A stretch of 41,106 bases of DNA. It comes from Spirochaetota bacterium. GTDB taxonomy: Bacteria; Spirochaetota; GWE2-31-10; MWDO01. Positions 1 through 41,106 of this stretch are shown piece after piece; the stretch's first letter is position 1, and each line of letters opens with the position of its first letter. Below the pieces are notes generated by a model. That model was not told where the DNA came from. It saw only the letters and a program-made list of their open reading frames with translations, and searched no databases. Where the stretch lies: NCBI GenBank assembly GCA_035406685.1, contig DAONLM010000001.1:1-41106 (forward strand), written 5' to 3'. A program made the translations under genes and the position numbers.

Positions 1-437
1 AGAATATTTCTCTATCAAAATTGATCTGTTATGTATTGCAAAAGTTTTCTGATAGGATCAAAAAAAGATACTGTTTCGGACATGAAGATGGAAATTTTTA
101 CGAAAGAATAGATGCAGATGACTCTATTCATTTTTATTTGCCAAAGGAAGATTATAGGTTTTTAAAGAAAATTCATGCTGACTTGAATTTTTTTAGCATG
201 GCAAAATTGTTGAGAGCAATTCTTGAGATATTCATTGAGGAATATGAGAGAATAGGAATGCTTGGATTTGAGAAGAAATGCAGTCTTGTGACATTGAGGT
301 TATGGGTGAAATTGACAGGGGTAAAGAGGTGGTGGAAGAGTAGAGAATTGTCCCACTTTAAAGGGAATTTCACCCCATTTTATAAAGCAATCTACAACGA
401 TTGCTATCAAGTAATAGGCTTTGAGACCTATTATTGA
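1..437 (+). CDS. Tandem ribbon-helix-helix-like small protein, family copy A (N-terminus runs off the window start)
   Basis: The frame stays open back to base 3. The upstream residues ..NISLSKLICYVLQ.. align to LSLSKLVVYILQ of copy D. About three quarters of residues match 30739..31278 by eye. It ends CYQVIGFETYY* like copies D and E. Confidence 0.8.
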   Translation, partial: NISLSKLICYVLQKFSDRIKKRYCFGHEDGNFYERIDADDSIHFYLPKEDYRFLKKIHADLNFFSMAKLLRAILEIFIEEYERIGMLGFEKKCSLVTLRLWVKLTGVKRWWKSRELSHFKGNFTPFYKAIYNDCYQVIGFETYY

Positions 438-532
438 CGGAATTTATTTTAAATTCTACTTGAAAAATAAATAACACTATTACAATCTTTTCTCAAACGA
501 AATTAATGATAGGATAAATCTATCTTTTTATC

Positions 533-555
533 TGCCTAAAAATAAAATCGCATCC
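533..555. repeat. Right terminal inverted repeat (IR-R) of cassette copy A
   Basis: TGCCTAAAAATAAAATCGCATCC is the reverse complement of the left-end repeat GGATG-ATTTTATTTTTAGGCA seen at 6005..6026. The same end motif follows copies B, D and E. Confidence 0.7.
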
Positions 556-4368: not shown

Positions 4369-5859
4369 CTATTTTTTGAAAGATTCGTAGAGTTCTAATA
4401 CTAGTTTATTAAAATAAGAAAAATCGTTTAAGCCTAAATCCATTAATATATTTTTATTTATTGTATTATAGATTTGCTCAATACTATTTTCTTTGTGTGA
4501 TATTATATTTGCTACATAGATAATACTTACAAATTTTTTGTAGTCTTTGTTACTCTGCCATGGTTTATGATGAAATTCAATAGCATCTATTAATTTTTCT
4601 GGGAAATTCCATTTTTGAGCAAGAAGTGCTCCTACCATTGAATGATTATAACCAGATGTTATCTCTTCTATAATTCTTACTGGGATACCTTTTTCGTGAC
4701 ACAAAAGATTGATTTTATTAATTAGCGAAGGATTTAAACCGAGTAGTACTATTTTCCCAAAGTCATGAAGTATTCCGCCGATATAGCAATCTTCTAATTC
4801 TTCTTTAAGGCCTAATTTTTTTGCAATGTGAAATGCATTAAAAGCAACCATATACGAATGATTCAGTATATCTTTCATTTTATTTATATCATATCTTTGT
4901 GATAAGATTTTATTTGTTTGATATGAGTATATGATATTCCTAAGACCTTTTAATCCTATTAATTTAATAGCCTCAAGTAAAGACGAGATTTTTCTTGGTA
5001 GCATAAATAGAGCTGAGTTTGAAAATTTTAATATATCCCCTGTTAAAGTTGGATCCTTAGAGATAATTAAAGAGATATCTTTTATATCTACATCTGGATT
5101 ATTTAATTTTTCTTGAAGTTTTATAATATTTTCTGGAAAATGTGGTATATCATTTATCTCTTTTATTATTAGCTCATTTACAATTGTCGTATGCTCTTCT
5201 GTTATTAAAGAGATAGGTATACTTATAGAAGTGATTGTGCTAGAATCATCAAAATTTAAAGAATAAGCATCAGCATCGAGTCCTAACTTTTTCAACATAA
5301 GAATTGAAATTATTATGCCAAGGCCAGCGCCTTCTTCACTCTGAAATATAGTAGAGAATGCTTCATCTATTGTTTTAAATTCTTTTGCTTTATCTTTTTT
5401 TTCATTTATAATGTGTATTTCATGTTCAAGTATTTTCACATTATTTTTTACAGAAATAATAAATCTATCATCTTTTATTACTAATAAAGTATGAATATGA
5501 TATCCCATCTCTTTTTGTAATTTTGAATATTCTTCTAAATTTGACATTATATTATTTTTAAAGTTTTTAATTCCTCTATTGTATTCTTCAATATTATTAT
5601 AATTTATGTTATTTTTCTCAAAATATATTCTTTTAACATTTGCTTTTATTGCATTCATCAACATCTCTTTGTAACAATATGATATAAAATCAAAAATATT
5701 ATCTTTTCCTATTGAATCTAAGAATACATTTATTATACTATTCATTTTTTGGATTTGAGTAATAGAAAGAGATGTAGTATCAATAACTAATTCATTTCCA
5801 TTGTTTATACAATTTTTAATTATCTCTTCTGTTACTTCATCTATACCATAAATATTCAT
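4369..5859 (-). CDS. HDOD-domain signalling protein with an N-terminal histidine-kinase-like ATPase module
   Basis: The C-terminal half carries HDOD-type motifs (LISKDPTLTGDILKFSNSALF, EAIKLIGL, GGILHDFGKIVL). The N-terminal half has NAIKAN and EEGAGLGI, resembling the N and G boxes of GHKL ATPases. Confidence 0.6.
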   Translation of the reverse strand: MNIYGIDEVTEEIIKNCINNGNELVIDTTSLSITQIQKMNSIINVFLDSIGKDNIFDFISYCYKEMLMNAIKANVKRIYFEKNNINYNNIEEYNRGIKNFKNNIMSNLEEYSKLQKEMGYHIHTLLVIKDDRFIISVKNNVKILEHEIHIINEKKDKAKEFKTIDEAFSTIFQSEEGAGLGIIISILMLKKLGLDADAYSLNFDDSSTITSISIPISLITEEHTTIVNELIIKEINDIPHFPENIIKLQEKLNNPDVDIKDISLIISKDPTLTGDILKFSNSALFMLPRKISSLLEAIKLIGLKGLRNIIYSYQTNKILSQRYDINKMKDILNHSYMVAFNAFHIAKKLGLKEELEDCYIGGILHDFGKIVLLGLNPSLINKINLLCHEKGIPVRIIEEITSGYNHSMVGALLAQKWNFPEKLIDAIEFHHKPWQSNKDYKKFVSIIYVANIISHKENSIEQIYNTINKNILMDLGLNDFSYFNKLVLELYESFKK

Positions 5860-5930: not shown

Positions 5931-6008
5931 GAAAATAGTTTATAAGATTTTGAGAAAAATAAGATTTTTTATTTAGAATTAAATATTATTTAATTTATAT
6001 TCAAGGAT

Positions 6009-6720
6009 GATTTTATTTTTAGGCAATTTTTTTATTTTTTTTCTTAAATTTTGTAAAGGATTTTCTCAAAAATTTTGTGATTAATATATAGAAATATTTT
6101 TTAACAGGAGGTATAAGTTATGCAAGAGTTTGACTTTGTAGTTAATGAAGATCTTTTTAAAAAAATTAAAAATTTAAAGGAGAAGAGAGGAGGATATCTT
6201 TCTCTTATTGTAAGAGATATAATCTTATTGATGCTTCCAGTATTAAAAAAGAAGCATCTTTTTGAAAAAAGACGGGATAAAGATTATAGATTTATAAATG
6301 CCACTCACAGGATTAGAATCTATATTCCAGAAGAGATTTATAATGAATTAAAACTGGTGCATGATCAGTTAAATTCATTCAGTATGGCAATTCTTGTTAG
6401 AGAATTGCTGGAAGTATATTTTGCTGGAATTGAAATAGAAGGTGAAGAGGAGTTTATAAAAAGTATACAAAAATTAGAAAGAGAGATTGAAAATTTAAAA
6501 GCAAGTAAGGCTGTGGTAGTGAAGATTGGTTCCCAAGATATCCCATGCTCGATAGACACTAACGACTATTTTTTACTCAAATTTAGCTCAAAATTTTGCC
6601 TGAAAGAGATAAAATTTTTATAAAAGTTAAAATTTACCCAACATTTTTATATTCTTTCAACTTTCTCTTTAACTATACATTAGACTAAGTTTGCTCTTTT
6701 TGTTGTCTAAAAATAAAATC
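6009..6720 (+). mobile_element. Complete IR-bounded RHH cassette, copy B (candidate non-autonomous mobile or modular regulatory unit)
   Basis: IR-L GATTTTATTTTTAGGCAA (6009..6026) and IR-R TTGTCTAAAAATAAAATC (6703..6720) match at 17/18 positions as inverted repeats. Between them lie a conserved 97-nt 5' module, one ORF and a 3' tail. No transposase is present. Confidence 0.55.
6120..6623 (+). CDS. Tandem ribbon-helix-helix-like small protein, family copy B (divergent subfamily)
   Basis: AGGAGG lies 7 nt upstream of the ATG. It has two beta-helix-helix modules (FDFVV-NEDLFKKIKNLKEKRG-YLSLIVRDIILLML and IRIYI-PEEIYNELKLVHDQLN-SFSMAILVRELLEVYF). It is colinear with copies A, C, D and E. Confidence 0.75.
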   Translation: MQEFDFVVNEDLFKKIKNLKEKRGGYLSLIVRDIILLMLPVLKKKHLFEKRRDKDYRFINATHRIRIYIPEEIYNELKLVHDQLNSFSMAILVRELLEVYFAGIEIEGEEEFIKSIQKLEREIENLKASKAVVVKIGSQDIPCSIDTNDYFLLKFSSKFCLKEIKFL

Positions 6721-6753
6721 TCTCCTTAACTTTTTTTTCTTATGTAATATTTT

Positions 6754-6782
6754 TTGACAAAAAAAATTCTTTATAGTATATT
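6754..6782 (+). promoter_or_regulatory. Sigma70-type promoter for the 6839..10704 operon
   Basis: TTGACA (6754..6759), 17 nt, TATATT (6777..6782). It begins 34 nt after the IR-R of cassette B. Confidence 0.55.
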
Positions 6783-6838
6783 AATAGTATATAAACTAAT
6801 ATGAATAATAGTATTATCCAATAAATATTCTTGAGAAA

Positions 6839-10780: not shown

Positions 10781-10802
10781 TCATACGACAATTGTCGTAT
10801 GA
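10781..10802. repeat. Perfect 22-bp palindrome carrying the GACAATTGTC core
   Basis: TCATACGACAA|TTGTCGTATGA, intergenic, about 80 nt after the HAD gene stop. Confidence 0.9.
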
Positions 10803-20109: not shown

Positions 20110-20129
20110 AATAGGACAATTGTCCTATT
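20110..20129. repeat. 20-bp perfect palindrome with the GACAATTGTC core, overlapping a stop codon
   Basis: AATAGGACAA|TTGTCCTATT. The TAG stop of the 20125..21267 gene (20125..20127) lies inside the right arm. Confidence 0.9.
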
Positions 20130-21267: not shown

Positions 21268-21522
21268 TATTTTTTACCTCGTTTAGAAAAATTGTATTTT
21301 ATTATAGAATAGAATACAATAAATATTTATATTTGTCTATAAAAATAATTATGCTTTAAAAGATATTTTTAGATTTTATTAGGAGAATTGTCCTATTTTT
21401 TTGAAAAAAAAGACAAAAATTCATAATCGCTGAAAATGATTAAAATAATATTACTTCTTATTTTTCCTAACAAGAATGCTTGAAATAATTTCAGTAAGAA
21501 TACTGGAATAACTTTATTTTAA

Positions 21523-22144
21523 GCGATTTTAAAAAAGTGCCAAAAAAAATGAAAAAAAATTTTAATTTTTGTAAAGGATTTTTTCACTTTTTTTGTGATT
21601 AATAAGTGAGGAGGAAAATATGAAAAAAGAATTTAATTTTATGATTGACAACAAACTTGAAAAAAATATTCTCTCTTATTGTAAAAAGAGAAAAATTAGT
21701 TACAACAGGGCAATAAATGAGATTATAGAGTTAATGTTGCCAGTAATAAAGGAGATACACTATTTTTCAGAGGAGAATGATTGCAAATATCAAAGAATAG
21801 ATGCTGTAAAAAAAATTCATTTGTATATGCCTAAAGAAATTTATAGAGAATTAAAGCTTGTTCATAGTAATCTTAATTTTTATAGCATTGCGATTCTTGT
21901 TAGATTTATGCTTGATATTTATTTTGAGTGGCTTGAAGAGACAAATGATAATGAGACAAAAATAAAAGAGAGGGTAAATGAGATAATAACTAAAATTGAT
22001 GATAGATTGAAAAAAAGTAATTACGAGGTAATAAAAAATGAGTTGAAAGTAAGGATAGGACAATTGTCTTGCAATCCATTTCCTCATACTCTTAAAATTC
22101 ATTATAATTTTGATTTCTCAATTCACAAGATAGAATTTTTATGA
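21523..22144 (+). repeat. Degenerate RHH cassette, copy C (diverged 5' module, no recognisable IR-R)
   Basis: The 5' region GCGATTTTAAAAAAGTGCCAA...TTTTTGTAAAGGATTTTTTCAC-TTTTTTGTGATTAATA is homologous to the B/D 5' module but diverged. The stop codon is followed within 19 nt by the -35 box of the next promoter. Confidence 0.5.
21620..22144 (+). CDS. Tandem ribbon-helix-helix-like small protein, family copy C
   Basis: GAGGAGG lies upstream of the ATG. It has FNFMI-DNKLEKNILSYCKKRK-ISYNRAINEIIELML and IHLYM-PKEIYRELKLVHSNLN-FYSIAILVRFMLDIYF. It is colinear with copy B, with a similar C-terminus (..HKIEFL versus ..KEIKFL). Confidence 0.75.
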   Translation: MKKEFNFMIDNKLEKNILSYCKKRKISYNRAINEIIELMLPVIKEIHYFSEENDCKYQRIDAVKKIHLYMPKEIYRELKLVHSNLNFYSIAILVRFMLDIYFEWLEETNDNETKIKERVNEIITKIDDRLKKSNYEVIKNELKVRIGQLSCNPFPHTLKIHYNFDFSIHKIEFL

Positions 22145-23509: not shown

Positions 23510-26500
23510 CTATTGCTCTCTCTTAACAATTGCCAATTTCTCTGGTGCTGTTCCAGTAGCATAGTTACTATCCCATGTTAATGCACCAGTACCAGTATCA
23601 ATCTTGAATAATTGAACATTATTACTCGTCCCTTTTACTGTAACATAAAGATAGTTTGCCCATGTTGCAGGATGAACAGCAACGGCATAAGGGGGTTGTG
23701 TTCCATTAGTGTTTACTGAACTTATTAGTGTTAATGCTCCAGTTGTTTGGTTTGTACTTGCATAGTGAATTGCATTATTTGCTGGTCTTGCTATATAGAT
23801 ATAATGTGTTGTCCCATAGTAAATATCAGAAATTGATGCATTATTTACAATACGATTTGAAATCCCTGTTGTTGCACCAGTATTATCATAAGAGTATGAT
23901 CTAACTCTGTTTCCACTTGTCATTGAAGCAAAGATATAATTTAGATTTTTATGAGTCTTAACAAATGAAGGTTGATTAAACCCTGGATTTAAAGTATTAT
24001 TGAATGTAACACTTGATCCATCAGCAGAAACATTCATAATTGATATTTTATTATTTCCAAAGCAAGGAATATAAATAAACTTATTTGCTTGAGCATTTGC
24101 AAACTCAAAATCCCTTGGTCCTGTATTCACTGACCCAGTTGAAACTGGAGCACCTAGAACTCCATTGGTTATTGAAAGTGTATTGATGCTATTTCCACTA
24201 TTACTCCCAACATATAAATAATTACCGTTTGGATTAACAGTAACACCCCATGCTCCCGTAATATCTTGAGAGCCTAAACTTGTTAGATTCCCATCCTTTT
24301 CTACGCTAAATGATTCTACTTTATTACCTGTATTCTCTGTTACAAATATATAGTTACCACTCGGATGAACAGCAATACTCCTTGGTCCATTCCCAGCAAG
24401 ACCAGATTTTGTACCAATATTGGTAAGTGTTCCATCATCATTAATTCTAAACATACTGATATTATTACTACCATTATTTGGCACATACAGATAATATCGA
24501 TATAAAATATAATCATTAGAGGCAACATTGGAATCCGTCCAATTTGTTTTAAAAGCCCTTGCTTTTATTGTGCAGGATGTTGTTAATTCAAATGGGGATG
24601 TGTAGAGAGTGGAAGAAGAAGTTGGTTCTGAACCATCAACTGTATAACGAATAGTAGCACCAGTAGTCGTTGTTGACATAGATATCATAGTGGTCTGATC
24701 ATAAGTTCCAGATGCTGGCAAAATAGTAGGAGTTGCAACAGGTCCATTAACAACATATGTCGCACTATTGGTATTAGAATCATCCCAGTTTGTCTTAAAT
24801 GCCTTAGCCTTAATTGTCATAGTGGTAAAGAGTGGAATATTTATAGGACCTGAATATACTGGCGAACTAATAGTTGGCTCACTACCATCAGTTGTATATC
24901 TAATCGTTGCCCCTGATGTAGATGTACTTATTGTTACATCAATGCTTTCAGGATATTCTCCTTCAGTATGGCTAAAAGTAGGAGTTGCAACTTTACCAGT
25001 TACAATATAAGTTTTTGTAATCACATTTGAATCTGACCAGTTTTCTTTTATAGCAATTGCTTTAATTGTCAGAGTTGTGTCATAATCAATGTGTATCGGT
25101 GAAGTATAAAGAGGAGAGGAATAATCCGGAGTAGAATCATCGGTTGTATATCTAATTTCTGCTCCAGTTGTTTCAGTAGATAAAACTATATCCTGCGGTG
25201 TTGTAAAAATTCCACTGTCTAAATTAAAGTTAGGATCTTTTGGTTTTAAAACAAAATTAGCTTGAGAAATTATAGAATTAGCCCATCCATCTTTTGTAGC
25301 AATTGCCTTTATAGTAGTATTTCTATTTATTGTTATGGGTGTAGTATAAATTAACGAACTACCCGGCACGGGATCAGTCCCATCCAGTGTATAATAAATA
25401 GTTACTCCAGATGGAGAACTAACATTAATTGAGACATTTTGAATTTCATTATAAATCCCAGATTCAGGTTCAAAAGTAGGAGCTGCACATGTGCCAGTGA
25501 TTATATATGTTGCCGTTGTAGTATCAGAATCATCCCAGTTTGTCTTAAATGCCTTAGCCTTAATTGTCATTGAAGAAGAAACGGATATTGGTCCTGTATA
25601 TTCTGTTGAAGTTTCATCTGGTTCACTACCGTTTGTAGTATACCTAATAATAGAATCAGGTGTAAGACAGCTTATTACCACTTCTTGTGGTGTTATATAA
25701 GTTCCTTCTGGTGGTAAAAATTGTGGAGAAGTTACCTTACCTGTTATTACATAAGAGAGAGTTAAAATATCTGAATTTTCCCAGTTATCTTTAACTGCTA
25801 TTGCCTTTATTAGATTGGTGGTATTGGTATCAAGATGAATAGGAGTGGTATAAATATTAGAATTAATATCTGGTGTTGTATCATCTGTAGTATAATATAT
25901 TGTTGCCCCTTCTGTCTCGCAATCCAATGTTACATCCTGTTCATTCTTATAAAGCCCTTCTGGTAATAAAGAGAAAGGACTCTTTACTTTTAAAGTATAT
26001 GTTATTGTAGAAACAGAAGAATCATTGTACCCCTCTTTAATAGTAATTGCCTTAATTGTAGTAGTTTTTGTTATATTGATTGGTGAATCATATAACAAAG
26101 ACGAAGTGGATGGCTCCGAACCATCAAGAGTATAATATATTTTTGCGGAAGAAGTAAGTGTTGATAAACTTACTGTTATCTCTGTATAATAGACTCCTTC
26201 TGTTAAAGAAAAAGTTGGAGAGGCACATGTCTCTTTAATTGTAAAACTTCTTGTTATTACATTAGAAGGTGTAAAACCAGTTTTATATGCTCTTGCCTTT
26301 ATAGTCATCCCATTGTTAACAGGAATAGGATATGAATACAAAGAAGAGTTTTCTGTTGGATCACTTCCATTTGTTGTATAACGAATAGTTGCCCCTTCTG
26401 TTTTTGAATTAATCGTAACAGTGATTGGAGAATCAAAAATCCCCCCATCTGGCAAGAATTCAGGATCAGAAACTTTAAGTAAACTAGTAGTTGTTGTGGT

Positions 26501-26623
26501 GCCAGTAGTTCCGCCTCCTTTTTTAGAACTATTACCACCAGTAATTGCATCCTGACTATAATTTATTAATTCTAAAAGATAGATAAAGATAATAAAAATA
26601 AATAATTTTTTTGAGAAAGACAT
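23510..26623 (-). CDS. Large secreted surface protein: eight chitobiase/hexosaminidase-C-like (Fn3-associated) repeats plus a C-terminal lactonase-type beta-propeller
   Basis: It has a signal peptide and eight ~80-aa repeats of the form (I/Y)(R/Y)YT(T/L)(D/N)G(S/T)(E/D)P...S..Y..PI....T.IKA.A.K..W..S. The C-terminal ~350 aa have YLYV.N.GSN.IS.F and GNGPRSIAVHP.GNY.FV.. blades. Confidence 0.8.
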   Translation of the reverse strand: MSFSKKLFIFIIFIYLLELINYSQDAITGGNSSKKGGGTTGTTTTTSLLKVSDPEFLPDGGIFDSPITVTINSKTEGATIRYTTNGSDPTENSSLYSYPIPVNNGMTIKARAYKTGFTPSNVITRSFTIKETCASPTFSLTEGVYYTEITVSLSTLTSSAKIYYTLDGSEPSTSSLLYDSPINITKTTTIKAITIKEGYNDSSVSTITYTLKVKSPFSLLPEGLYKNEQDVTLDCETEGATIYYTTDDTTPDINSNIYTTPIHLDTNTTNLIKAIAVKDNWENSDILTLSYVITGKVTSPQFLPPEGTYITPQEVVISCLTPDSIIRYTTNGSEPDETSTEYTGPISVSSSMTIKAKAFKTNWDDSDTTTATYIITGTCAAPTFEPESGIYNEIQNVSINVSSPSGVTIYYTLDGTDPVPGSSLIYTTPITINRNTTIKAIATKDGWANSIISQANFVLKPKDPNFNLDSGIFTTPQDIVLSTETTGAEIRYTTDDSTPDYSSPLYTSPIHIDYDTTLTIKAIAIKENWSDSNVITKTYIVTGKVATPTFSHTEGEYPESIDVTISTSTSGATIRYTTDGSEPTISSPVYSGPINIPLFTTMTIKAKAFKTNWDDSNTNSATYVVNGPVATPTILPASGTYDQTTMISMSTTTTGATIRYTVDGSEPTSSSTLYTSPFELTTSCTIKARAFKTNWTDSNVASNDYILYRYYLYVPNNGSNNISMFRINDDGTLTNIGTKSGLAGNGPRSIAVHPSGNYIFVTENTGNKVESFSVEKDGNLTSLGSQDITGAWGVTVNPNGNYLYVGSNSGNSINTLSITNGVLGAPVSTGSVNTGPRDFEFANAQANKFIYIPCFGNNKISIMNVSADGSSVTFNNTLNPGFNQPSFVKTHKNLNYIFASMTSGNRVRSYSYDNTGATTGISNRIVNNASISDIYYGTTHYIYIARPANNAIHYASTNQTTGALTLISSVNTNGTQPPYAVAVHPATWANYLYVTVKGTSNNVQLFKIDTGTGALTWDSNYATGTAPEKLAIVKREQ
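24776..24820. repeat. 45-nt exact intragenic repeat (partner at 25526..25570)
   Basis: AGAATCATCCCAGTTTGTCTTAAATGCCTTAGCCTTAATTGTCAT occurs identically 750 nt apart. Both copies encode MTIKAKAFKTNWDDS. Confidence 0.9.
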
Positions 26624-26729: not shown

Positions 26730-26974
26730 ATTTTTTACGGATTTTCTTGATTAAAATTTAAAAATTAATAAAAATAATATAGATATTCAACTTTTATGTT
26801 TTTTTACTTTATTATTCTATTTTATCAATAAATTATAGTCATTTTCTGTACAATACTTTCTTTGTAAAATTTATAATTTTATTAAAAAATAAAATTTCTT
26901 TTAGATAATATTGATTTTTTTTAAAAAATGGTCTAAAATATACTATGAAGTTAATAAAGCATAAGGTATAAATA

Positions 26975-27388: not shown

Positions 27389-29150
27389 CAACAACAGTAA
27401 GTCTAACAGTGTCTTCAAGTCTTATCAAATCTTTTAATGTGCCAGAAAAACCACTTGCCCTTTTATAGTATCTATTTGAAGATTTTTTTAGTGAAGAATA
27501 ATAGGAATATCCTACTTCCTGATAGTTTTCATAAATAAGAGGCGTTGGATCATAATTAAACATATTAATTGAGCCAATGTTATAATCAATTGTGTTATCG
27601 CTTGTACTTGTAAACCATGTGCCTTTATTATAAGAATAGCCAGTTGACATTGTAAGTTGATCAGAACAAATGACTGCTGCCCCCCATTTTTGTAAGCAAC
27701 TACTAAAAGTTTCAGAATATCCGAGACTACTGAAAGCACTATTTATAGCAAGATAATTTATATAAGGATTTTGAACAATATTTTTAAATAACTTAACCCC
27801 ACCAAAATTTCTTGCAAGATAAGCTCCAAATGAGTATACAATCGAATAGCTTCTTAAAACATCATCGCCATCTAACCATACTATTACAGAATCATCATTA
27901 TTATTATTATAGAGAGGCAATCTACCATTAGAATTACTTGGACTACCAGCAGTACCGTCATTATAGTCTATTCCTCGTGGACCATTAAAGCCAATCTTTT
28001 CTGATGCAAAGTCTTCTGCCATCAATGAACACATTTCATCAAGCCAGACATCAGATGATTTTGATAAATTATTCTTTATCACCTTTTGATAAAAATGGAT
28101 CATATGTTGCAATTCATGAGCAAGAGTAGAAATCATTTGCATTGGATAGTTGTCTGTAATATCCCATAACCCATCCCCTTTGGCAAAAAGACAGGCATCT
28201 ATATAAAACATTGTGCATTCATTAGATCCACCCTCTGTTAAACCAGTATATTTTTTTAATTCTGAATTAAGATAGTTATCCTTTGCCCAGAAATATCCAA
28301 GTACCACTCCGCCAGTAGTATTGCCATTGTCATTATCAATGTCATATAACAATATAGTAATATTATCCTCTTCTGAAGAAGGGATAAACCCTGGATAGTT
28401 ATGTAAGCCCCAATGAGAGCCATATATCCCACTAATTAATGTATAAATGTCGTTTGTTGTATCTGCTTTCAAAAATTTATCTGCCATTGCTGCTACCATA
28501 GTGTCATTTACCTTATATGTCTTTGTTCCACCAATATACCAGCAATCATCAGCTACATATATATTAAGATTTTTTCCTTTAATATTTTGACTGAATCTAC
28601 ATGTTGATGGTATATATTCAATACTCCACCCACCATTATAATTTAAGTTAAAAAATGTCTTTTGTTCCCCAACAGTTGCCTTTCTAGGGTGGGGTGGAAG
28701 AATATTACTCCTTTTTTCAATAATAGGTGAATTTGATTTATGTTTATTAAGAAAATCTTCTGGATTACTATTAAATTCTTTTACTATCTCTTTATCTTTA
28801 ATATAAGAGTTAGAAACTATATTTCTATTTTTCGATATAGAAAATGATTTATTCTCTTCTATCTGGTTATTATTTTTATAGACAACCGGGTTTTTTTTAT
28901 CAGAGGAGGTACTTATATTTGTAAATATATAATAGACATCGTTATTATTTAGATTAGAAAGTGTATAACTCAATTCTGTGTATGTATTGGTATTTATATG
29001 AAATATCTCTGGGGATGTTCCAGAAAAACTATTTGACCTATTTATTTTTTGATAAGTGGTAGTTGTTGATGGTTGTTCTACTGGACAGTTAGATAAAATT
29101 AAAATAATAATACTTATAACACATGATATTAAAAAAATATTTTTTTTCAT
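27381..29150 (-). CDS. Lipoprotein zinc metalloprotease (HExxH; M30/hyicolysin-like)
   Basis: It has a signal peptide with lipobox LSNC and the zinc motif TLAHELQHMIHF. The M30 assignment is from memory only. Confidence 0.55.
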   Translation of the reverse strand: MKKNIFLISCVISIIILILSNCPVEQPSTTTTYQKINRSNSFSGTSPEIFHINTNTYTELSYTLSNLNNNDVYYIFTNISTSSDKKNPVVYKNNNQIEENKSFSISKNRNIVSNSYIKDKEIVKEFNSNPEDFLNKHKSNSPIIEKRSNILPPHPRKATVGEQKTFFNLNYNGGWSIEYIPSTCRFSQNIKGKNLNIYVADDCWYIGGTKTYKVNDTMVAAMADKFLKADTTNDIYTLISGIYGSHWGLHNYPGFIPSSEEDNITILLYDIDNDNGNTTGGVVLGYFWAKDNYLNSELKKYTGLTEGGSNECTMFYIDACLFAKGDGLWDITDNYPMQMISTLAHELQHMIHFYQKVIKNNLSKSSDVWLDEMCSLMAEDFASEKIGFNGPRGIDYNDGTAGSPSNSNGRLPLYNNNNDDSVIVWLDGDDVLRSYSIVYSFGAYLARNFGGVKLFKNIVQNPYINYLAINSAFSSLGYSETFSSCLQKWGAAVICSDQLTMSTGYSYNKGTWFTSTSDNTIDYNIGSINMFNYDPTPLIYENYQEVGYSYYSSLKKSSNRYYKRASGFSGTLKDLIRLEDTVRLTVVVK

Positions 29151-29173
29151 TTTATACCTTCTTTAAAAAATAA

Positions 29174-29195
29174 ATAAGAGGGATATCCCCCTTAT
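29174..29195 (-). terminator. Palindromic hairpin (GGGATATCCC core) downstream of murA
   Basis: ATAAGAGGGAT|ATCCCCCTTAT is a 22-bp palindrome with one mismatched pair. On the minus strand it is followed by TTATTTTTT. It lies between the murA stop (29232) and the peptidase start (29150). Confidence 0.5.
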
Positions 29196-29231
29196 TATTA
29201 TAACGCATTATTTTAAAAAAGCAAAAAAAAA

Positions 29232-30509
29232 TTATTCAATTACTTTAATTTTTGCCCCAAGGTTGCTCAATCTTTCTGGTAATTTCTCATATCCTCTCTC
29301 TATCTGAATCACATTTTGAATAATACTTGTCCCCTCAGCACATAGTGCAGCAATTACCAGTGCCATACCAGCCCTTATATCTGGGCTTGTTAACTCAAGT
29401 CCCTTTAATCTTGTGGGTCCTGTTATTACGGCTCTATGAGGATCACAGAGTATTATACGAGCCCCCATTGAGACTAATTTATCAACAAAGAATAGTCTTG
29501 ACTCAAACATCTTTTCAAAGACAAGCACAGTTCCATCAATCTGTGTTGCAGTCACAACAATGATACTTATTAAATCTGGTGGGAAGCCAGGCCATGGAGA
29601 ATCATCGATTTTTGGGATCATTCCACCAATATCTGATTGAACTCTTAATTCTTGATGAGATGGAACAAATATTGATCTTCCATCAGTCTCCCATGTTATC
29701 CCTAATTTTCCAAACACCAGTCGAGCCATTCTCATATTTTGAGGATCAGCATCAGTAATCTCTATTTCTCCTCTTGTTACAGCTGCAAGTCCTATAAGAG
29801 AGCCGACCTCCATATAGTCTGTCCCTATTTTAAATTCAGTTCCATGTAATTTTTTTACACCAGTTATTTTTAGAATATTTGAACCAATCCCCTCTATTTT
29901 TGCCCCCATAGAGTTTAAGCATCTACATAGATCCTGAACATGTGGCTCACTGGCTGCATTTATGATCACTGTTTCGCCTTCCGCAAGAACACTTGCCATT
30001 ATTGCATTTTCGGTCCCTGTAACAGATGCTTCGTCCAGAAAAATTTCTTTACCAACAAGTCTATTGGCACTCAATTTAAAATTAGCTCCTATTTCAATTC
30101 TACTTCCTAATTCTGATAAAGCAAGAAAATGCGTATCTAGTCTTCTTCTTCCTATTACATCTCCACCCGGAGGTGGTAATTCTACCTTACCAGATCTTGC
30201 AAGTAAAGGACCTGCAAAGAGAATGGATGTTCTTATTTTTTTACCAAGTTCCTGATTTATTGTTGTCTTTGAAATATTTGTTTTTATTTTGTATGAATTT
30301 GTATCAAGACGTTCAACAGTGGATCCTATTTCCTTTAAAATCGTAAGCATTACTGCAACATCTTCTATATCAGGTATGTTTCTTAATATGACTTCTTCAT
30401 CAGTCAGAAGAGTTGCTGCTATTATTGGTAAGGCAGCGTTTTTATTGCCATTTGGTTTAATCTTTCCTTTTAATGGATATCCACCTTCAATTAAATATTT
30501 TTTAGCCAT
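29232..30509 (-). CDS. murA: UDP-N-acetylglucosamine 1-carboxyvinyltransferase (MurA), Asp-type active site
   Basis: It has [22 protein letters not shown] and [17 protein letters not shown], and is colinear with MurA over its full 425-aa length. Confidence 0.93.
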
Positions 30510-30556
30510 CTATTTCCCTTTTTTGTGTTGAAGAATAAGAATTTCATTTTTAAAAT

Positions 30557-30585
30557 CTTATACTAAAAATTTTAATATTTGTCAA
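30557..30585 (-). promoter_or_regulatory. Sigma70 promoter for murA (minus strand)
   Basis: On the minus strand: TTGACA (30585..30580), 17 nt, TATAAG (30562..30557). Confidence 0.5.
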
Positions 30586-30598
30586 AACTTAATAGAGT

Positions 30599-31412
30599 AA
30601 ACAGAAAGGAAGGCGATTTTATTTTGAGGCAATTTTTTTTATTTTTTTCTTAAATTTTGTAAAGGATTTTCTTAAAAATTTTGTGATTAATATATAGAAA
30701 TATTTTTTTATAAACTTAAGGAGTAAGGAGGATTTTTTATGGATATTAATAAAATTTTAGAAAACTACAATGCTGAACATGAGTTTCACTTTGTAGTAAA
30801 ATCAGAAATGAAAAAAAGGCTTGTAAAATTAGCAGAAAAATTAAATTTATCTTTATCAAAACTTGTTGTGTATATTCTTCAATTGTTTTGTAACAGGATA
30901 AAAAAGATATACTGCTTTGGTGTTGAGGATGGAAATACTTATGAAAGAATTGATGCTACTGATAAAATTAGGGTATATCTCTCAAAAGAGGATTATAGAT
31001 TCTTAAAAAAGATTCATGCGGATCTTAATTTTTTCAGCATGGCAGTCCTCTTGAGGAGAATTGTCGCACTTTTTTTGGAAGAATATGAGAAAATGGGGCT
31101 TTTAGGTGTGGAGAAGAAATGTAGTCTTGTGACATTGAGGTTATGGTTGAAAATAACAAAGATAAAGAGGTGGAAAAAGAATAAAGAATTGTCGCACTTT
31201 GAAGGCAATACCATGCCCTTCTATAAGGCGATCTATAATAATTGCTATCAAGTAATAGGTTTTGAAACCTATTATTGACCATAATTTTATTTAGAAATGA
31301 ATAGATCTATTATAACTTTTTCTCAAACAAAGTTAACATGAGGATAAATGTATTTTTTTAATTGCCTAAAAATAAATTAGTGCGCAAACAGAAAGAAAAG
31401 CAATTTTATTTT
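30599..31412 (+). mobile_element. Complete RHH cassette, copy D, with IRs and flanking 27-nt direct repeats
   Basis: The direct repeats are AAACAGAAAGGAAGGCGATTTTATTTT (30599..30625) and AAACAGAAAGAAAAGCAATTTTATTTT (31386..31412), differing by 3 G-to-A changes. IR-L is GATTTTATTTTGAGGCAA (30615..30632). IR-R is TTGCCTAAAAATAAATT (31362..31378). Confidence 0.55.
30739..31278 (+). CDS. Tandem ribbon-helix-helix-like small protein, family copy D (full length, 179 aa)
   Basis: AAGGAGG lies upstream of the ATG. It has two beta-helix-helix modules (FHFVV-KSEMKKRLVKLAEKLN-LSLSKLVVYILQLF and IRVYL-SKEDYRFLKKIHADLN-FFSMAVLLRRIVALF). It is close to copies A and E. Confidence 0.8.
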   Translation: MDINKILENYNAEHEFHFVVKSEMKKRLVKLAEKLNLSLSKLVVYILQLFCNRIKKIYCFGVEDGNTYERIDATDKIRVYLSKEDYRFLKKIHADLNFFSMAVLLRRIVALFLEEYEKMGLLGVEKKCSLVTLRLWLKITKIKRWKKNKELSHFEGNTMPFYKAIYNNCYQVIGFETYY

Positions 31413-31430
31413 TTAAAAATGTTATTTTTT

Positions 31431-31459
31431 TTGACAATTTAGATTTTTTAGTATATATT
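31431..31459 (+). promoter_or_regulatory. Sigma70 promoter directly abutting the START-domain gene (possibly a leaderless mRNA)
   Basis: TTGACA (31431..31436), 17 nt, TATATT (31454..31459). The annotated ATG is at 31468, only 9 nt after the -10 box, and no Shine-Dalgarno sequence is visible. Confidence 0.45.
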
Positions 31460-31467
31460 AAGCAAAG

Positions 31468-32091
31468 ATGAGATATATACATATAATTCTTTTATTATTA
31501 TTGAATTATTTTCTTTATTCAACCAGTATGTTTTATAATATAAATTGGCATTTTGAAAAGGAGAAAAAAGGTATATCACTTTATATTGCTATAGATCCTG
31601 ATACGCAGGTAAACTATTATAAGGCTCAGACAGTTGTAAAGAATATTTCTTTTGATAAAATTGTGAAAATTCTATCTGACTTTGATAATTATAATAAATT
31701 TTTCCCAAAAACAATAATTTTCAAACCTATAAGAGTTATAGGGGAGAGGAGATTTATTGTCTATTCTCTTCTTAACTTTTTTCCTTATAAAAATAGAGAG
31801 TATCTGGTTGAGTGTTGTATTCAGGAGGAAATAGTTAATGATAGGAAGATTTTTAAGTTATACTGGTATCCAGATACTACCAATACTGAGTTTAATTTTA
31901 ATAAAAAGAATCATAGAATAAAAAATGTTTATGGAATGTGGCAAATAGAGGAATTGGAGAATAGTGAAGTTAAAATTACATTTTTTTCTTTTAATGACTG
32001 GGAGATAACTGCTCCAAGAAATATTAAAGTAGAATTTGAAAAAGATGGGACTATAAATAATGTCCTTGATTTATTAAATGGGGTAAGGTAG
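31468..32091 (+). CDS. START/SRPBCC-like lipid-binding domain protein with an N-terminal signal or anchor
   Basis: The pattern W.FEKEKKGISLY........YYKA...V.N.S.DKIVKILSDFDNY.KFFP...........IGERRFIVYS.LNFP.PYKNREYL is reminiscent of bacterial START domains. Confidence 0.45.
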   Translation: MRYIHIILLLLLNYFLYSTSMFYNINWHFEKEKKGISLYIAIDPDTQVNYYKAQTVVKNISFDKIVKILSDFDNYNKFFPKTIIFKPIRVIGERRFIVYSLLNFFPYKNREYLVECCIQEEIVNDRKIFKLYWYPDTTNTEFNFNKKNHRIKNVYGMWQIEELENSEVKITFFSFNDWEITAPRNIKVEFEKDGTINNVLDLLNGVR

Positions 32092-32178
32092 ATTTTATCA
32101 ATTAAAAATGAGATAACCAATCATAATAATTAAATGAAATTATAGTTATTTCATAAATATATTCTGTAAATGTAATAT

Positions 32179-32196
32179 GTGCGACAATTGTCCTAT
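32179..32196. repeat. Intergenic copy of the extended GACAATTGTC palindrome
   Basis: GTGCGACAATTGTCCTAT (core 32183..32192), about 90 nt downstream of the START-domain gene. Confidence 0.85.
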
Positions 32197-32274
32197 CTGT
32201 ATAAATTAGGTCTCTTTATTTACCCCTCTTATTGAAAAAATAGATTGTTACATCTAATTAATTATTTTTTTCTT

Positions 32275-32303
32275 TTGACAAAAAAGATTTTATTAGATAT
32301 AAT
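32275..32303 (+). promoter_or_regulatory. Consensus sigma70 promoter for the NUDIX / hybrid-kinase operon
   Basis: TTGACA (32275..32280), 17 nt, TATAAT (32298..32303). Confidence 0.6.
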
Positions 32304-32341
32304 ATTTTAAATAAAAAGTTTTACTTTTAAGGTGTAATGGC

Positions 32342-32767
32342 ATGGCAAAACTTCCTATTCAGGTAGATGTTATTTTGTTTTATAGAGACAAAGATGGTAT
32401 AAAATATCTCTTGCTCAAAAGAACAGAAGAGAGAGGGGGATTCTGGCAACCTGTAACAGGTGGAGTAGAAGAAGGGGAAGATATTTTATATGCAGCAAGA
32501 AGAGAGGTAATGGAAGAGACTGGTTTTTTAAAAGTAAAAAAAATGTATGATGTTAAGTATAAATTTTCTTTTAAAAATGGGGATAAAGAGATTACAGAGT
32601 ATGTATTTGCCTTTGAGGTAGATAGTATGAATGTAAATTTTTCAAAAAGAGAACATTCAGAAATTGTTTGGGTTTCTTATGAAGATGCTTTAAAATATTT
32701 AAAGTGGGATACAAATAAAGAGGCTTTAAAAAAAATAAATGATTATTTAACAAGAGATATTCAATAA
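32342..32767 (+). CDS. NUDIX hydrolase
   Basis: The Nudix box is GGVEEGEDILYAARREVMEETG. Confidence 0.85.
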   Translation: MAKLPIQVDVILFYRDKDGIKYLLLKRTEERGGFWQPVTGGVEEGEDILYAARREVMEETGFLKVKKMYDVKYKFSFKNGDKEITEYVFAFEVDSMNVNFSKREHSEIVWVSYEDALKYLKWDTNKEALKKINDYLTRDIQ

Positions 32768-32768
32768 A

Positions 32769-35273
32769 ATGTTTTTTAGAAAAAATTTTATTAAAACATT
32801 TACTATTTTTTTTATCTTAATTTTTTCTCTTTGCTGTAAAAATAAAGAACCTTCAATAGATAGACCTAATTTAGATAAAAAAGAAATTAATGTTATAATG
32901 GATAATAACTATCCCCCTTATATTTTTCTTGATGAGAATAATAACTTAAAAGGGATTTTAATAGATCAATGGCATCTCTGGGAGAAAAAGACCGGTATAA
33001 AAGTAAACATTGTTGCTACAGACTGGATAGAGGCACAGAATCTTATGAAACAGGGAAAATTTGATGTTATTGATACTATTTTTAAAACAGAGGAGAGACT
33101 TAAAATATATGATTATTCAAAGCCTTATGCAAAAATAAGAGTTCCGATTTTTTATCATAAAAATATCTCTGGCATAATTGATGCTCCTTCTCTTAAAGGT
33201 TTTAATGTTGCTGTAAAGGAAGGGGATGCATGTATTGATGTATTAAAAAGTTATTCTATTACTAATCTTATTGAGTATAAGTCTTATGAAGATATAATAA
33301 AGGCAGCAAAAAATAGAGATGTTGTGATATTTGTTGTAGATGAATCACCTGTCTATTATTTTATGTATAAATATGGAATTCAGAATGAGTTTAAGGATAG
33401 CCCCCCTTTATATACTGGAGAGTTTCATAGAGCAGTCTTAAAAGGTAATAAAGATCTATTAAATTTAATAGAATATGGTTTTGCTCAAATATCAAAAAAA
33501 GAATATAATGAAATAGAGGAAAAGTGGTTTGGGAAAAATAAGGTTGAATTTAATTTAAAATATTTTTTATTGTTTTCTGGCATTTTTTTAGGTAGTATTG
33601 TTCTATTTTTTATAATTTTATTTTTAATGATGTTCTGGAATTTCAGTTTAAAAAATATTGTAAATGCAAGAACTTTTGAATTAAGAAATGAGATAGAGAA
33701 AAATTTAAAGATACAAAAGGAGTTAGAGGAGAGTAAAAGACTTTATAAATTATTATCAGAAATAACATCCGATGCCGCAAGTCTTCTCACAATTCAGCCA
33801 GACGGATCTTTTAAAAGGGAATGGTATACTACTGCTTTAATAGTAGAGTATGGTTATAAGATGGAAGATATTGATTCTTTTGAAAAATGGGCAAAAATTG
33901 TTTATAAAGATGACATAGATATATATAAAAACGGCATTAAGAGAGTTCTAAATGGAGAAAAGGTTTCAGTAGATTTAAGAATAGTTAAAAGTGATAATAA
34001 AATAAGATGGATTAATAACACGGTTATTCCCATAAAGAATATAGAGAGTGGTAGAGTAGAAAGATTATTGATTTCTATAAAAGACATTACAGATAGAAAA
34101 AGGATAGAAGAGGAATTAAGATTGGCAAAGGAAGAGGCAGAAAGACTTGCTAATATTAAGAGCCAATTTTTATCCAATATGAGTCATGAAATACGAAATC
34201 CTTTAAACGGTATATTGGGTATGATAAATATGTTAATAAAAACAGATCTTTCTGATACTCAAAAAGAGTATATCGATATGCTTAAAACATCGAGTGAGAC
34301 GCTATTAAATATAGTTAACGACATTCTTGATCTTGCTAAAATAGAGGCTGGTAAAAGAGTAATAAGAAATGAAGTGATAAAAATAAAAAATCTCTGTCTT
34401 GGTCTTGTTAATTCTTTTAAAATAGCAACAGAAAGTAAAAATCTAAAACTCAATTTTATTTATGATAATGACTTACCTAAATATATAATTGGTGATCCTT
34501 CCTGTTTGAATCAGATCTTTCTTAATCTATTAAGCAATGCTGTTAAATTCACAGAAAAAGGTGGAATTACTTTTGAAGTAAAAAAGATAAAAGAGGATGA
34601 AAAAACAGTCGATATTGTTTTTATTGTTAAGGATACTGGAATTGGTATTCCAAATGATAAATTGAATGATATTTTTGGGAAATTTATTCAACTCGAAACA
34701 TCCTATAATAAAAAATATAAGGGGACTGGACTTGGACTAACAATAGTTAAGGAGATTATTGATCTTTTGGGAGGAGAAATCATTGTTGAGAGTAAGGAGA
34801 AAGAGGGAACTACATTTTTAATAAAATTAAAATTTGAGAAGTATAATTATGAAGTAATAGAGAATAAAAAGGATGAGGCTAAGGCCATCATTAATGAAAA
34901 AGAGTATAATATAATAATTGCAGAGGATAATGCGATAAATTATCTATTTCTGGAAGCAATGTTAAAGGATAAAGCTTATAATGTATTTGGGGCAAAGAAT
35001 GGCAAAGAGGTTCTGGATTTAGTAGAAAAAAATAAGATTGATCTTATATTGATGGATATACAAATGCCAGTCTTAAATGGTATTGATTGCACAAAAATTT
35101 TAAGAAATGAGAAAAAATTTAAAAATCCAATAGTGGCACTAACCGGTTATACAATGCCAGAGGATTTAAAGGTGTTTAAAGATGCTGGAGTGGATGACTA
35201 TATAATTAAGCCAATAGATGAGAATGAAACACTGAAAAAAATTGTAAAATTACTATTGACTTTAAATAAATAA
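32769..35273 (+). CDS. Hybrid sensor histidine kinase (periplasmic solute-binding domain, TM, PAS, HisKA, HATPase_c, REC)
   Basis: It has lipobox/signal FSLCC and an SBP_bac_3-like N-terminal domain followed by a transmembrane segment. It also has the H-box SNMSHEIRNPLNG, LLSNAVKFT, DTGIGI, GTGLGL and a receiver domain with DLILMDIQMP. Confidence 0.88.
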   Translation: MFFRKNFIKTFTIFFILIFSLCCKNKEPSIDRPNLDKKEINVIMDNNYPPYIFLDENNNLKGILIDQWHLWEKKTGIKVNIVATDWIEAQNLMKQGKFDVIDTIFKTEERLKIYDYSKPYAKIRVPIFYHKNISGIIDAPSLKGFNVAVKEGDACIDVLKSYSITNLIEYKSYEDIIKAAKNRDVVIFVVDESPVYYFMYKYGIQNEFKDSPPLYTGEFHRAVLKGNKDLLNLIEYGFAQISKKEYNEIEEKWFGKNKVEFNLKYFLLFSGIFLGSIVLFFIILFLMMFWNFSLKNIVNARTFELRNEIEKNLKIQKELEESKRLYKLLSEITSDAASLLTIQPDGSFKREWYTTALIVEYGYKMEDIDSFEKWAKIVYKDDIDIYKNGIKRVLNGEKVSVDLRIVKSDNKIRWINNTVIPIKNIESGRVERLLISIKDITDRKRIEEELRLAKEEAERLANIKSQFLSNMSHEIRNPLNGILGMINMLIKTDLSDTQKEYIDMLKTSSETLLNIVNDILDLAKIEAGKRVIRNEVIKIKNLCLGLVNSFKIATESKNLKLNFIYDNDLPKYIIGDPSCLNQIFLNLLSNAVKFTEKGGITFEVKKIKEDEKTVDIVFIVKDTGIGIPNDKLNDIFGKFIQLETSYNKKYKGTGLGLTIVKEIIDLLGGEIIVESKEKEGTTFLIKLKFEKYNYEVIENKKDEAKAIINEKEYNIIIAEDNAINYLFLEAMLKDKAYNVFGAKNGKEVLDLVEKNKIDLILMDIQMPVLNGIDCTKILRNEKKFKNPIVALTGYTMPEDLKVFKDAGVDDYIIKPIDENETLKKIVKLLLTLNK

Positions 35274-38272: not shown

Positions 38273-38301
38273 TTGACAACATTAAGATTTTTAAGTATAT
38301 A
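38273..38301 (+). promoter_or_regulatory. Sigma70-type promoter upstream of the GS-III gene
   Basis: TTGACA (38273..38278), 17 nt, TATATA (38296..38301). It matches the secA promoter at 24 of 29 positions. Confidence 0.5.
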
Positions 38302-38329
38302 TTTAAAAATTAAGATGAGTTTTAGTTAT

Positions 38330-40555: not shown

Positions 40556-40662
40556 TAACTTATCTTTCCCATAGATCTTTTTTAATAATATATTTAAAAT
40601 TTTATTATTTTTTTGAGAAATAGAAAATGGTTTTTGATTAAATTTATTCAAAAAAAAAAAGC

Positions 40663-40681
40663 GCAATTTTATTTTTAGTCA
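40663..40681. repeat. IR-R of cassette copy E (element on the minus strand)
   Basis: GCAATTTTATTTTTAGTCA is the reverse complement of TGACTAAAAATAAAATTGC. It matches the ends found after copies A, B and D. Confidence 0.65.
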
Positions 40682-40777
40682 GTTAAAAAAAATAGAATTA
40701 TCCTAAGGGTTAATTTTATTTGAGAAATAATTGTAATAGTGTTATTTATTTTTTGGTAGAATTTAAAATAAATTTTT

Positions 40778-41106
40778 TCAATAATAGGTCTCAAATCCTA
40801 TTACCTGATAGCAATCGTTGTAGATTGCCTTGTAAAAGGGCGTGGTATTCCCTTCAAACTGGGATAATTCTCTGCTCTTATTCCACTTTTTTATCTTTGT
40901 TAGTCTCAAAAATAACTTTAATGTTACTATACTACACTTCATCTCAACCCCGGTAATGCCTAATTTCTCGTATTCTTCAAGGAAGAGTAGGATAATTCTC
41001 CTCAGTAAAACACCCATGCTGAAAAAATTAAGATCAGCATGGATCTTTTTTAAAAAACGATAGTCCTGTTTGGAAACATATATATGAATTCTCGCATCTC
41101 CATCTA
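40778..41106 (-). CDS. Tandem ribbon-helix-helix-like small protein, family copy E (N-terminus runs off the window end)
   Basis: The minus-strand frame stays open beyond the listed Met. Upstream codons read ..DGDARIHIYVSKQDYRFLKKIHADLNFFSMGVLLRRI.., colinear with copies A and D. It ends CYQVIGFETYY*. Confidence 0.8.
   Translation of the reverse strand, partial: DGDARIHIYVSKQDYRFLKKIHADLNFFSMGVLLRRIILLFLEEYEKLGITGVEMKCSIVTLKLFLRLTKIKKWNKSRELSQFEGNTTPFYKAIYNDCYQVIGFETYY

Follow-up and report, generated by a model that had tools for sequence, protein, structure and literature searches.

Introduction

Mobile insertion cassettes (MICs), such as MIC231 of the Bacillus cereus group, and MITEs (miniature inverted-repeat transposable elements) that bear an open reading frame (ORF) are short elements with terminal inverted repeats (TIRs) of insertion sequence (IS) type and flanking target duplications; they hold a passenger gene and no transposase, and their movement is presumed to occur in trans. 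Here we describe cassettes with this layout in a 41,106-nt stretch of DNA from a Spirochaetota bacterium (contig DAONLM010000001.1), hereafter the window, which holds five paralogous copies labelled A, B, C, D and E. Each copy encodes a protein predicted to contain two ribbon-helix-helix (RHH) modules. The unit at 30609-31385 (element D), together with A, B and E, is on balance probably a trans-mobilised, MIC-like, high-copy TIR transposon that carries an RHH gene.

The cassettes have IS-like TIRs, target duplications, a passenger gene and no transposase. Unlike in MICs and MITEs, one gene family is obligatory in all sub-lineages and under strong purifying selection, there are dozens or more copies per genome, the ends hold subterminal repeat arrays, insertions are concentrated in divergent promoter regions, and no partner IS was found in ~0.8 Mb. 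A first-pass annotation of the window had proposed an undescribed minimal mobile module. The mobility is supported by what follows, while the layout is of a known kind, that of a MIC or ORF-bearing MITE, though with unusual properties. What is new here is the pairing of the cassette with an obligatory RHH gene, together with the array of sites in the ends, the high number of copies, the action of purifying selection and the preference for promoter regions; we found no literature linking MITEs or MICs with an RHH gene.

Two other systems bear a partial likeness to the cassette. F-plasmid TraY is a monomer holding the whole fold of an RHH dimer, and three TraY molecules occupy two direct sites and one inverted site (PMC12117103), a train that lies beside the site where a DNA-processing enzyme acts (PMC12117103). 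Like TraY, and also Ti-plasmid VirC2 and lipothrixvirus AvtR, the cassette protein is predicted to place two RHH modules in one chain as a pseudo-dimer. It differs from these proteins in that sequence similarity is undetectable (8-16% identity in structural alignments), it has an extra 40-residue helix and a C-terminal β-hairpin, and it is encoded on a transposon-like cassette with no relaxase or conjugation link. IS1 is 768 bp long, with terminal repeats of ~23 bp and target duplications of 8-9 bp. Both it and the cassette are very small elements, and its InsA is a small DNA-binding protein that acts on the ends and represses transcription and transposition, a role that the cassette protein may share by analogy. 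In contrast, IS1 encodes the catalytic InsAB' by frameshifting while the cassette has no second frame, and the zinc-finger/helix-turn-helix fold of InsA is not the RHH fold predicted for the cassette protein.

Element boundaries and terminal inverted repeats

We gathered 79 loci from metagenomes, in a scan totalling 177 stretches, and 19 from GTDB genomes. Units of the D type were reduced to 60 non-redundant copies and aligned with MAFFT, including 300-nt flanks. In this alignment conservation switches on at the left terminal repeat (TIR-L) and off at the right one (TIR-R), with unrelated flanks on either side. A BLASTN search of window positions 28000-34000 against the gathered loci gave the same picture: similarity was confined to ~30613-31377, and cassettes up to 95% identical to D were found at unrelated sites.

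The terminal repeats lie at the exact limits of the units and are 24 nt long, GGGTGY-GATTTTATTTTTAGGCAR. Print-outs of the junctions gave a left-end consensus of GGGTGC-GATTTTATTTTTAGGCAA, with the right end as its complement, terminating in GCACCC. Positions 8-19 of the repeat (ATTTTATTTTTA) are nearly invariant; the six outer, G+C-rich bases read GGGTGC...GCACCC in most copies and GAAGGC / GTGCGC in D. With these six further bases on each repeat, element D spans 30609-31385. B-type units share these 24-nt ends, at the equivalent positions. The first-pass annotation had described inverted repeats of 18 nt, and these are present at the left ends of B and D (6009-6026 and 30615-30632) and at the right ends of B, D, A and E (6703-6720, 31362-31379, 532-549 and, on the minus strand, 40665-40682); the places which it gave hold, with a repeat length of 24 rather than 18 nt. 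Allowing three mismatches, the 17-mer of the repeat has 8 matches in the window against 1.39 expected, a number reached in 0/100 shuffles. GCRATTTTATTTTT with at most one mismatch occurs 6 times against 0.71 expected, four of the six being true TIRs and one a relic beside D. A solo right end, TACCTAAAAATAAAATCACACCC, lies at 5338-5359 of locus L031 with no cassette body alongside.

Target-site duplications

Just beyond the 24-nt ends, 8-mers of unrelated sequence are present in many copies, identical on the left and right. Among the 23 units with both ends recognisable, the two 8-mers match at 8/8 positions in 6/23 and at 7/8 in 5/23; in controls, for which left and right flanks were taken from different copies, the corresponding figures were 0% and 3.2%. 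Perfect duplications flank the cassettes of L095 (GATACATT), L076 (TTCTCAAT), L049 (TTACATTT), L071 (GTCAATAA) and L070 (ATATTTTA), as well as element D of the window (ACAGAAAG), and a near-perfect one, (A)AAGTAAA, scored 7/8 at L033. The sharp loss of similarity at the repeats and the flanking 8-bp duplications of constant length and unrelated sequence support the earlier proposal that the units are discrete and mobile.

Element D is in addition bracketed by a 27-nt direct repeat (24/27 identical, with three G/A differences), correctly reported in the first-pass annotation and read there as attL/attR-style cores. As the target duplication of D is AAACAGAAAG, the 27-nt repeat resolves into this 10-nt duplication plus 17 nt at 31396-31412, and these 17 nt are the start of a 24-nt TIR-like relic (31396-31419) outside the element. 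The long repeat and the relic are unique to D among the 60 copies. The relic may be what is left of an earlier copy, or may stem from a tandem dimer or a junction of circle type.

As a separate observation, two 37-nt stretches at 26866-26902 (minus strand) and 31396-31432 are 81% complementary. Both start with AAAAGNAATTTTATTTTTTAA and resemble the start of the cassette left end, and one of them sits in the only divergent junction of the window that has no cassette. Lost cassettes may have left them behind, or they may be a native motif that lies upstream of promoters.

Copies in the window and anatomy of element D

All five paralogous ORFs were located where the first-pass annotation had placed them. 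A, D and E form one subfamily with a DNA likeness of 70-78%, and the B and C proteins are each ~27% identical to that of D. The copies are as follows.

Element A, 1-555, plus strand: truncated by the contig start, as is its ORF (<1-437); 3' module, TIR-R 532-555 (CTGCCTAAAAATAAAATCGCATCC)
Element B, 6003-6726, plus strand: TIR-L 6003-6026, 5' module, ORF 6120-6623 (167 aa), 3' module, TIR-R 6703-6726; target duplication not preserved
Copy C, 21562-22144, plus strand: conserved 43-nt 5' box 21562-21604 (TTTTGTAAAGG...TTTTGTGATTAATA), ORF 21620-22144 (174 aa)
Element D, 30609-31385, plus strand: ORF 30739-31278 (179 aa), with the parts given below
Element E, 40659-41106, minus strand: truncated by the contig end; ORF 40778->41106 (cut by the contig end), TIR-R 40659-40682

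Element D and its immediate surroundings consist of these parts.

30599-30608, no strand: left target-site duplication, AAACAGAAAG (canonical 8 bp ACAGAAAG); the same 10-mer is at 31386-31395
30609-30632, plus strand: TIR-L, GAAGGCGATTTTATTTTGAGGCAA, which fits the family consensus GGGTGCGATTTTATTTTTAGGCAA; terminal ATTTTAT site at 30616-30622
30633-30738, plus strand: 5' module with direct ATTTTGT sites at 30654-30660 and 30678-30684, the TTTTGTAAAGGATTTTCT box, and a Shine-Dalgarno sequence (AAGGAGTAAGGAGG) at 30719-30732
30739-31278, plus strand: ORF for a predicted single-chain double RHH protein with a long helix and a C-terminal β-hairpin
31279-31361, plus strand: 3' module with a subterminal inverted ATTTTGT-type site and a weak hairpin/T-run
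31362-31385, minus strand: TIR-R, TTGCCTAAAAATAAATTAGTGCGC, an inverted copy of TIR-L
31386-31395, no strand: right target-site duplication, AAACAGAAAG
31396-31419, plus strand: TIR-L-like relic outside D, AAAAGCAATTTTATTTTTTAAAAA

The cassettes (D and its paralogues A, B and E) range from ~725 to 780 bp, and the ORF occupies 540 of the ~777 bp of D. The 94-nt 5' module is 96% identical between B and D despite proteins that are only ~27% identical. The self-contained, repeat-bounded unit described earlier holds for B and D and not for copy C, which has no terminal repeats apart from a possible degenerate TIR-L at 21523-21543 and is thus probably immobilised. The weak hairpin and T-run noted in the 3' module are present, although the stem is only 4 bp and no intrinsic terminator in the cassette passes a terminator scan.

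Site array in the ends

Copies of the motif ATTTTRT recur through both ends of the cassette. Plus-strand sites lie inside TIR-L (~-120 from the ATG), at -75 and at -52, and minus-strand sites at +57 from the stop codon and at +102 inside TIR-R. Three of these inward-pointing sites thus belong to the left end and two to the right, and on each side the outermost one falls within the TIR. The positions of the motif in the 5' module are fixed across copies; the minus-strand site at +55 to +60 is found in 43/60 copies and is degenerate in D (ACAAAGT at ~31329-31335). Such a layout is comparable to the terminal and subterminal arrays bound by transposases or accessory proteins in other transposons, and it also resembles the trains of direct and inverted sites bound by RHH proteins such as TraY.

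Complementary arms could also point to RNA pairing. The arms share 20 substitutions, no excess over the 15.8 +/- 3.5 of shuffles, the RNA fold of the 5' module is no better than that of its shuffled versions (z = 0.22), and Rfam returned no match, which argues that these are DNA sites and not an RNA stem.

The double ribbon-helix-helix protein

At the sequence level the protein is only faintly related to known families. The window proteins match RHH profiles below threshold only (RHH_1 E = 0.024, RHH_3 E = 0.012), RHH_1/3/5 are matched by 7/114 diverse relatives (best E 6.8e-06), and a PHROG Arc-like repressor profile is matched at E = 2.5e-4. A sequence search of the PDB gave no match to solved structures, no relatives were found in plasmids by sequence, and PADLOC returned nothing meaningful. 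The first-pass annotation had suggested a likeness to DUF1564 (PF07600), a multicopy Leptospira family of similar size with a two-module layout. In the HMM-level comparison 0/5 window proteins matched PF07600 at E <= 1 and 0/114 relatives at E <= 0.01, and the NCBIfam equivalent of DUF1564 had no match either, so this membership was dropped.

Using AlphaFold2, an alignment of 15 sequences already yielded two β-α-α modules, and with the 114 diverse relatives the model reached a pLDDT of 91 and a pTM of 0.85. In this model of the D protein, module 1 comprises a strand (residues 14-20) and two helices (22-34 and 39-60), module 2 a strand (75-81) and two helices (83-95 and 101-141), and a C-terminal hairpin follows at 161-178. 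When the model was compared with the PDB by Foldseek, the best matches were all RHH proteins, and the top 11 were TraY chains of the F-plasmid relaxosome (prob 0.99-1.0; target-normalised TM 0.58-0.76; 9f0x_E/F/G among them), followed by AvtR, DndE, VirC2 and single-chain Arc. The single-chain double RHH architecture proposed earlier is therefore borne out by a confident model, in which two RHH modules form a pseudo-dimer within one chain; the predicted fold is TraY-like and not that of a transposase. The residues F18, Y68, Y86, L89, K90, H93, N97, S100 and R106 are invariant, and no acidic residue is invariant across the family. An exhaustive profile search placed the family at 247 clusters at 50% identity, all of them unnamed and many on short contigs.

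Selection, conservation and copies without ends

The ORF is intact in 58/60 non-redundant D-type copies. Across copies pN is 0.15 against a pS of 0.57, and dN/dS is ~0.12 for the closer pairs, indicating purifying selection. Median pairwise identities among the 60 copies are as follows.

5' module: 0.84
Coding sequence: 0.79
3' module: 0.73
TIR-L: 0.73
TIR-R: 0.61
Flanks: 0.43-0.47

The non-coding end modules are much better kept than synonymous sites. Some copies are missing one or both ends or the entire 3' module, with the ORF and the TTTTGTAAAGGATTTT box retained. Copies without ends that keep an intact ORF and the 5' box are C in the window, L134_14490 and L053_503, L020 and L024, and L144, a relative from another species that has the 5' box without TIRs. 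That copies lacking TIRs (C and some in the D lineage) keep both the gene and the 5' box suggests that the gene matters apart from mobility.

More distant relatives form a branch in the metagenome-assembled genome (MAG) Spirochaetales bacterium Zod_Metabat.749 (JAFGQK01; L002-L019), with 30-40% identity and at least 18 copies. Many of these copies lie at contig ends, and they have ragged boundaries and a conserved 3' hairpin, CAGACCTCGTGCAA...TTGCACGAGGTCGG. A 70%-identical D-type copy was also found on a 2.8-kb contig binned as Caldisericota (L001, JAKPCM010000129.1); a misbinned spirochaete contig is a more likely explanation than transfer between phyla.

Genomic placement, copy number and assembly

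Insertions are strongly in excess in intergenic regions that contain promoters, especially divergent ones: divergent genes flank 32 of the 60 units, tandem genes 27 and convergent genes 1. Since loci centred on divergent junctions meet convergent junctions first, a locus-based background of junction types is biased and was set aside. We instead took a census of host-gene junctions from the ORF table of the window, which had not been chosen for that purpose.

Divergent junctions: 3/4 occupied (B, C, D)
Convergent junctions: 0/4 occupied
Tandem junctions: 0/26 occupied

The contrast between 3/4 divergent and 0/30 other junctions has a hypergeometric probability of 6.7e-4, and in three more 20-kb regions 3/7 divergent junctions were occupied. 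The earlier statement that the cassettes sit in divergent promoter regions thus holds as a preference. Downstream of the cassette ends, at a distance of ~40-140 nt, lie strong TTGACA-N17-TATAxT promoters, such as the one at 31431-31459. Promoter DNA may be the target of the element, or insertions may survive there only.

One MAG contains at least 27 distinct locus tags for the gene, and the density in the related regions examined is about one cassette per 10-20 kb. Many copies are truncated at contig ends, as are A and E here, the usual effect of a dispersed repeat on assemblies. Four contigs from different samples (L124, L125, L126 and L130) are identical up to the interior of a B-type cassette at ~4900-5100 and then continue into four different neighbourhoods and right ends. 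Chimeric assembly at the repeat could account for this, as could true recombination of one cassette with another.

Search for a transposase and for empty sites

Domain scans of the cassette proteins (Pfam, NCBIfam, PADLOC) found no transposase or integrase. No second conserved ORF exists in the cassette and antisense ORFs are unconserved; an antisense gene, the 82-aa ORF at 31034-31282, was rejected as unconserved among copies. The genes that adjoin the copies in the window are of common chromosomal kinds (secA, an HDOD protein, an Asp23-family operon, a methyltransferase, DUF134, an EPSP-synthase-family enzyme and glutamine synthetase III), and six other 20-kb cassette neighbourhoods contained no transposase. 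The absence of a transposase or integrase inside or beside the copies, claimed previously, is in agreement with all of the scans and neighbourhoods examined. An autonomous insertion sequence was accordingly set aside: the sole conserved ORF has the predicted RHH fold and no transposase domain, and no second ORF is conserved.

Relaxed TIR patterns run over the ~0.8 Mb of loci returned cassette ends, one solo right end, and chance matches. In viral_contigs the 17-mer had 21 chance matches, with the RHH gene near none of them. We also looked for sites without the cassette. An exact look-up of the gene to the right of D returned the same strain only, with the insertion present; BLAST of flank pairs among the loci returned identical filled sites only; and homologues of the gene to the right of D (61-67% identity) have no cassette and are uninformative, as synteny is not conserved. 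No loci overlapped unique parts of the window. Assemblies GCA_035359055.1 and GCA_029552865.1 contain the locus too. Between the otherwise identical contigs L124 (14580-14754) and L125 there is a 175-bp indel unlike cassette ends, which may be a different small mobile element.

Discussion

Taken as a trans-mobilised transposon, the cassette would be moved by a DDE-type transposase making 8-bp staggered cuts, encoded elsewhere in the genome as for MICs and MITEs. The IS256, ISL3, IS6 and IS1595 families make 8-bp duplications; no member was identified in the data here. The RHH protein probably binds the candidate ATTTTRT sites at both ends, and through them it would hold down its own promoter and control how accessible the ends are. 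In this way it could be a repressor or accessory factor common to the copies and responsive to their number, by analogy with InsA of IS1 or TraY at oriT.

Several observations weigh against this picture. The gene is kept under purifying selection in every sub-lineage, which is unusual for the mere passenger of a non-autonomous element. TIRs have decayed or duplications are absent in many copies, so that much of the family may be old, and the relatives in the Zod_Metabat.749 MAG are multicopy too without clear TIRs being seen. No autonomous element or transposase with the same TIRs was found in the ~0.8 Mb of related sequence. No empty site or presence-absence polymorphism was found in data lacking orthologous loci from close relatives. 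No sigma-70-type promoter in the 5' module passes a promoter scan. Finally, all of the data are metagenome assemblies, in which repeats produce chimeric joins. Because the gene is obligatory in all sub-lineages and persists in copies without ends, there is room for other readings: these facts are in keeping with domestication to a later role or, at low probability, with an element that has the RHH protein as the sole factor of its own.

The first of these, which we hold to be a minority possibility, is that the cassettes spread anciently and are now fixed host genes, each RHH protein serving as a local transcription factor for the adjoining promoters, with the terminal repeats and ATTTTRT sites kept as operators rather than transposase sites. 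The purifying selection on nearly all copies speaks for this, as do the retention of an intact ORF and 5' box in TIR-less copies, non-coding modules that are better conserved than synonymous sites, the strong excess at divergent promoter regions with near-absence from convergent ones, and the partial decay of most target duplications. Yet copies 86-95% identical to D at unrelated sites, together with some perfect duplications, indicate fairly recent movement, and one common operator for proteins of 27% identity is hard to square with gene-specific local control. This account is largely compatible with that of a trans-mobilised transposon, as a later stage of one history. Much less probable is an autonomous minimal transposon, whose double-RHH protein would mark the ends and recruit a host nuclease or recombinase, or would itself be an unrecognised transposase. 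Such a cassette would home to the stretches that separate divergent promoters, and over half of these in the genome would hold a copy. In its favour, all sub-lineages have the gene and keep it under selection, and the ends are constant across proteins of 27% identity; a transposase was not seen in ~0.8 Mb; and the nearest structural analogues, TraY and VirC2, are accessory proteins by which a DNA-cleaving enzyme is loaded onto its specific site. Nevertheless, the predicted fold is a plain DNA-binding RHH with a helix and a β-hairpin, the family has no invariant acidic residue, 8-bp duplications are typical of DDE chemistry, and a transposase missing from partial data is weak evidence.

Two further explanations are remote. 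A site-specific recombination cassette, with the 27-nt repeats at D as attL/attR cores made by an integrase, is very improbable. The 24/27 direct repeat does bracket D, and one gene for a XerC/D-like integrase lies 8 kb from a cassette in L124, but the long repeat occurs in D only, where it decomposes into a target duplication and a TIR-like relic. The other copies carry unrelated 8-bp duplications, insertion sites have no recombination core in common, and no integrase is associated with the cassettes. Terminal inverted repeats and target duplications of constant length make the unit a transposon, and the att-site reading was rejected, as was an integron cassette, the junctions being unrelated 8-mers with no integrase linked. 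Least likely of all is a feature acting at the RNA level, in which the repeats pair the 5' and 3' parts of a long transcript or the 5' module is a structured leader. The arms are complementary, and L048 has matching changes in both of them. Against this stand the shared arm changes and folding score, neither of which stands out from the shuffles, the lack of an Rfam match, and the target duplications, which are a DNA-level signature; RNA explanations were discarded on the Rfam, folding and arm covariation tests.

If the cassette is indeed a trans-mobilised element, it represents a transposon family with a conserved, selected DNA-binding gene in place of a transposase, and one that has spread into the majority of the divergent promoter regions in an uncultured spirochaete. 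It would also explain the assembly breaks at the RHH gene in related genomes, and it would give a function-level handle on a protein family that is absent from Pfam. The questions it raises are what moves the cassette, a partner IS or a host enzyme; whether its placement between back-to-back promoters reflects target choice (for example of negatively supercoiled DNA) or selection; and whether dozens of paralogous RHH proteins with one operator serve to sense copy number or form a layer of regulation across the genome.

Other features of the window

Host promoters lie downstream of cassettes at 688-734, 6732-6784 and 31409-31461, and the glutamine synthetase promoter is at 38273-38319. These four share TTGACA-N8-ATTTTTNAGTATAT and are 72-74% identical over ~50 nt; shared sequence beyond the hexamers suggests that promoters of this organism have a strong, extended consensus.

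The first-pass annotation had named GACAATTGTC palindromes among the candidate binding sites of the protein. They are a separate motif, over-represented throughout the window and unconserved in the cassette consensus. The palindrome GGACAATTGTCC occurs at 14 sites (342-41001) with at most two mismatches, against 0.77 expected and 0/100 shuffles, for example at 10786-10797, 20114-20125, 21382-21393 and 32182-32193. These sites are both intergenic and within genes, with one near-match in each RHH ORF. As it is not conserved in the cassette consensus, GGACAATTGTCC seems to be a motif of the whole genome and distinct from the cassette, perhaps a site for a regulator or one related to restriction-modification. 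A minus-strand ORF of 1037 aa (23510-26623) contains at least seven tandem repeats of ~246-252 nt within 24531-26420 and likely encodes a surface protein with Ig-like repeats.

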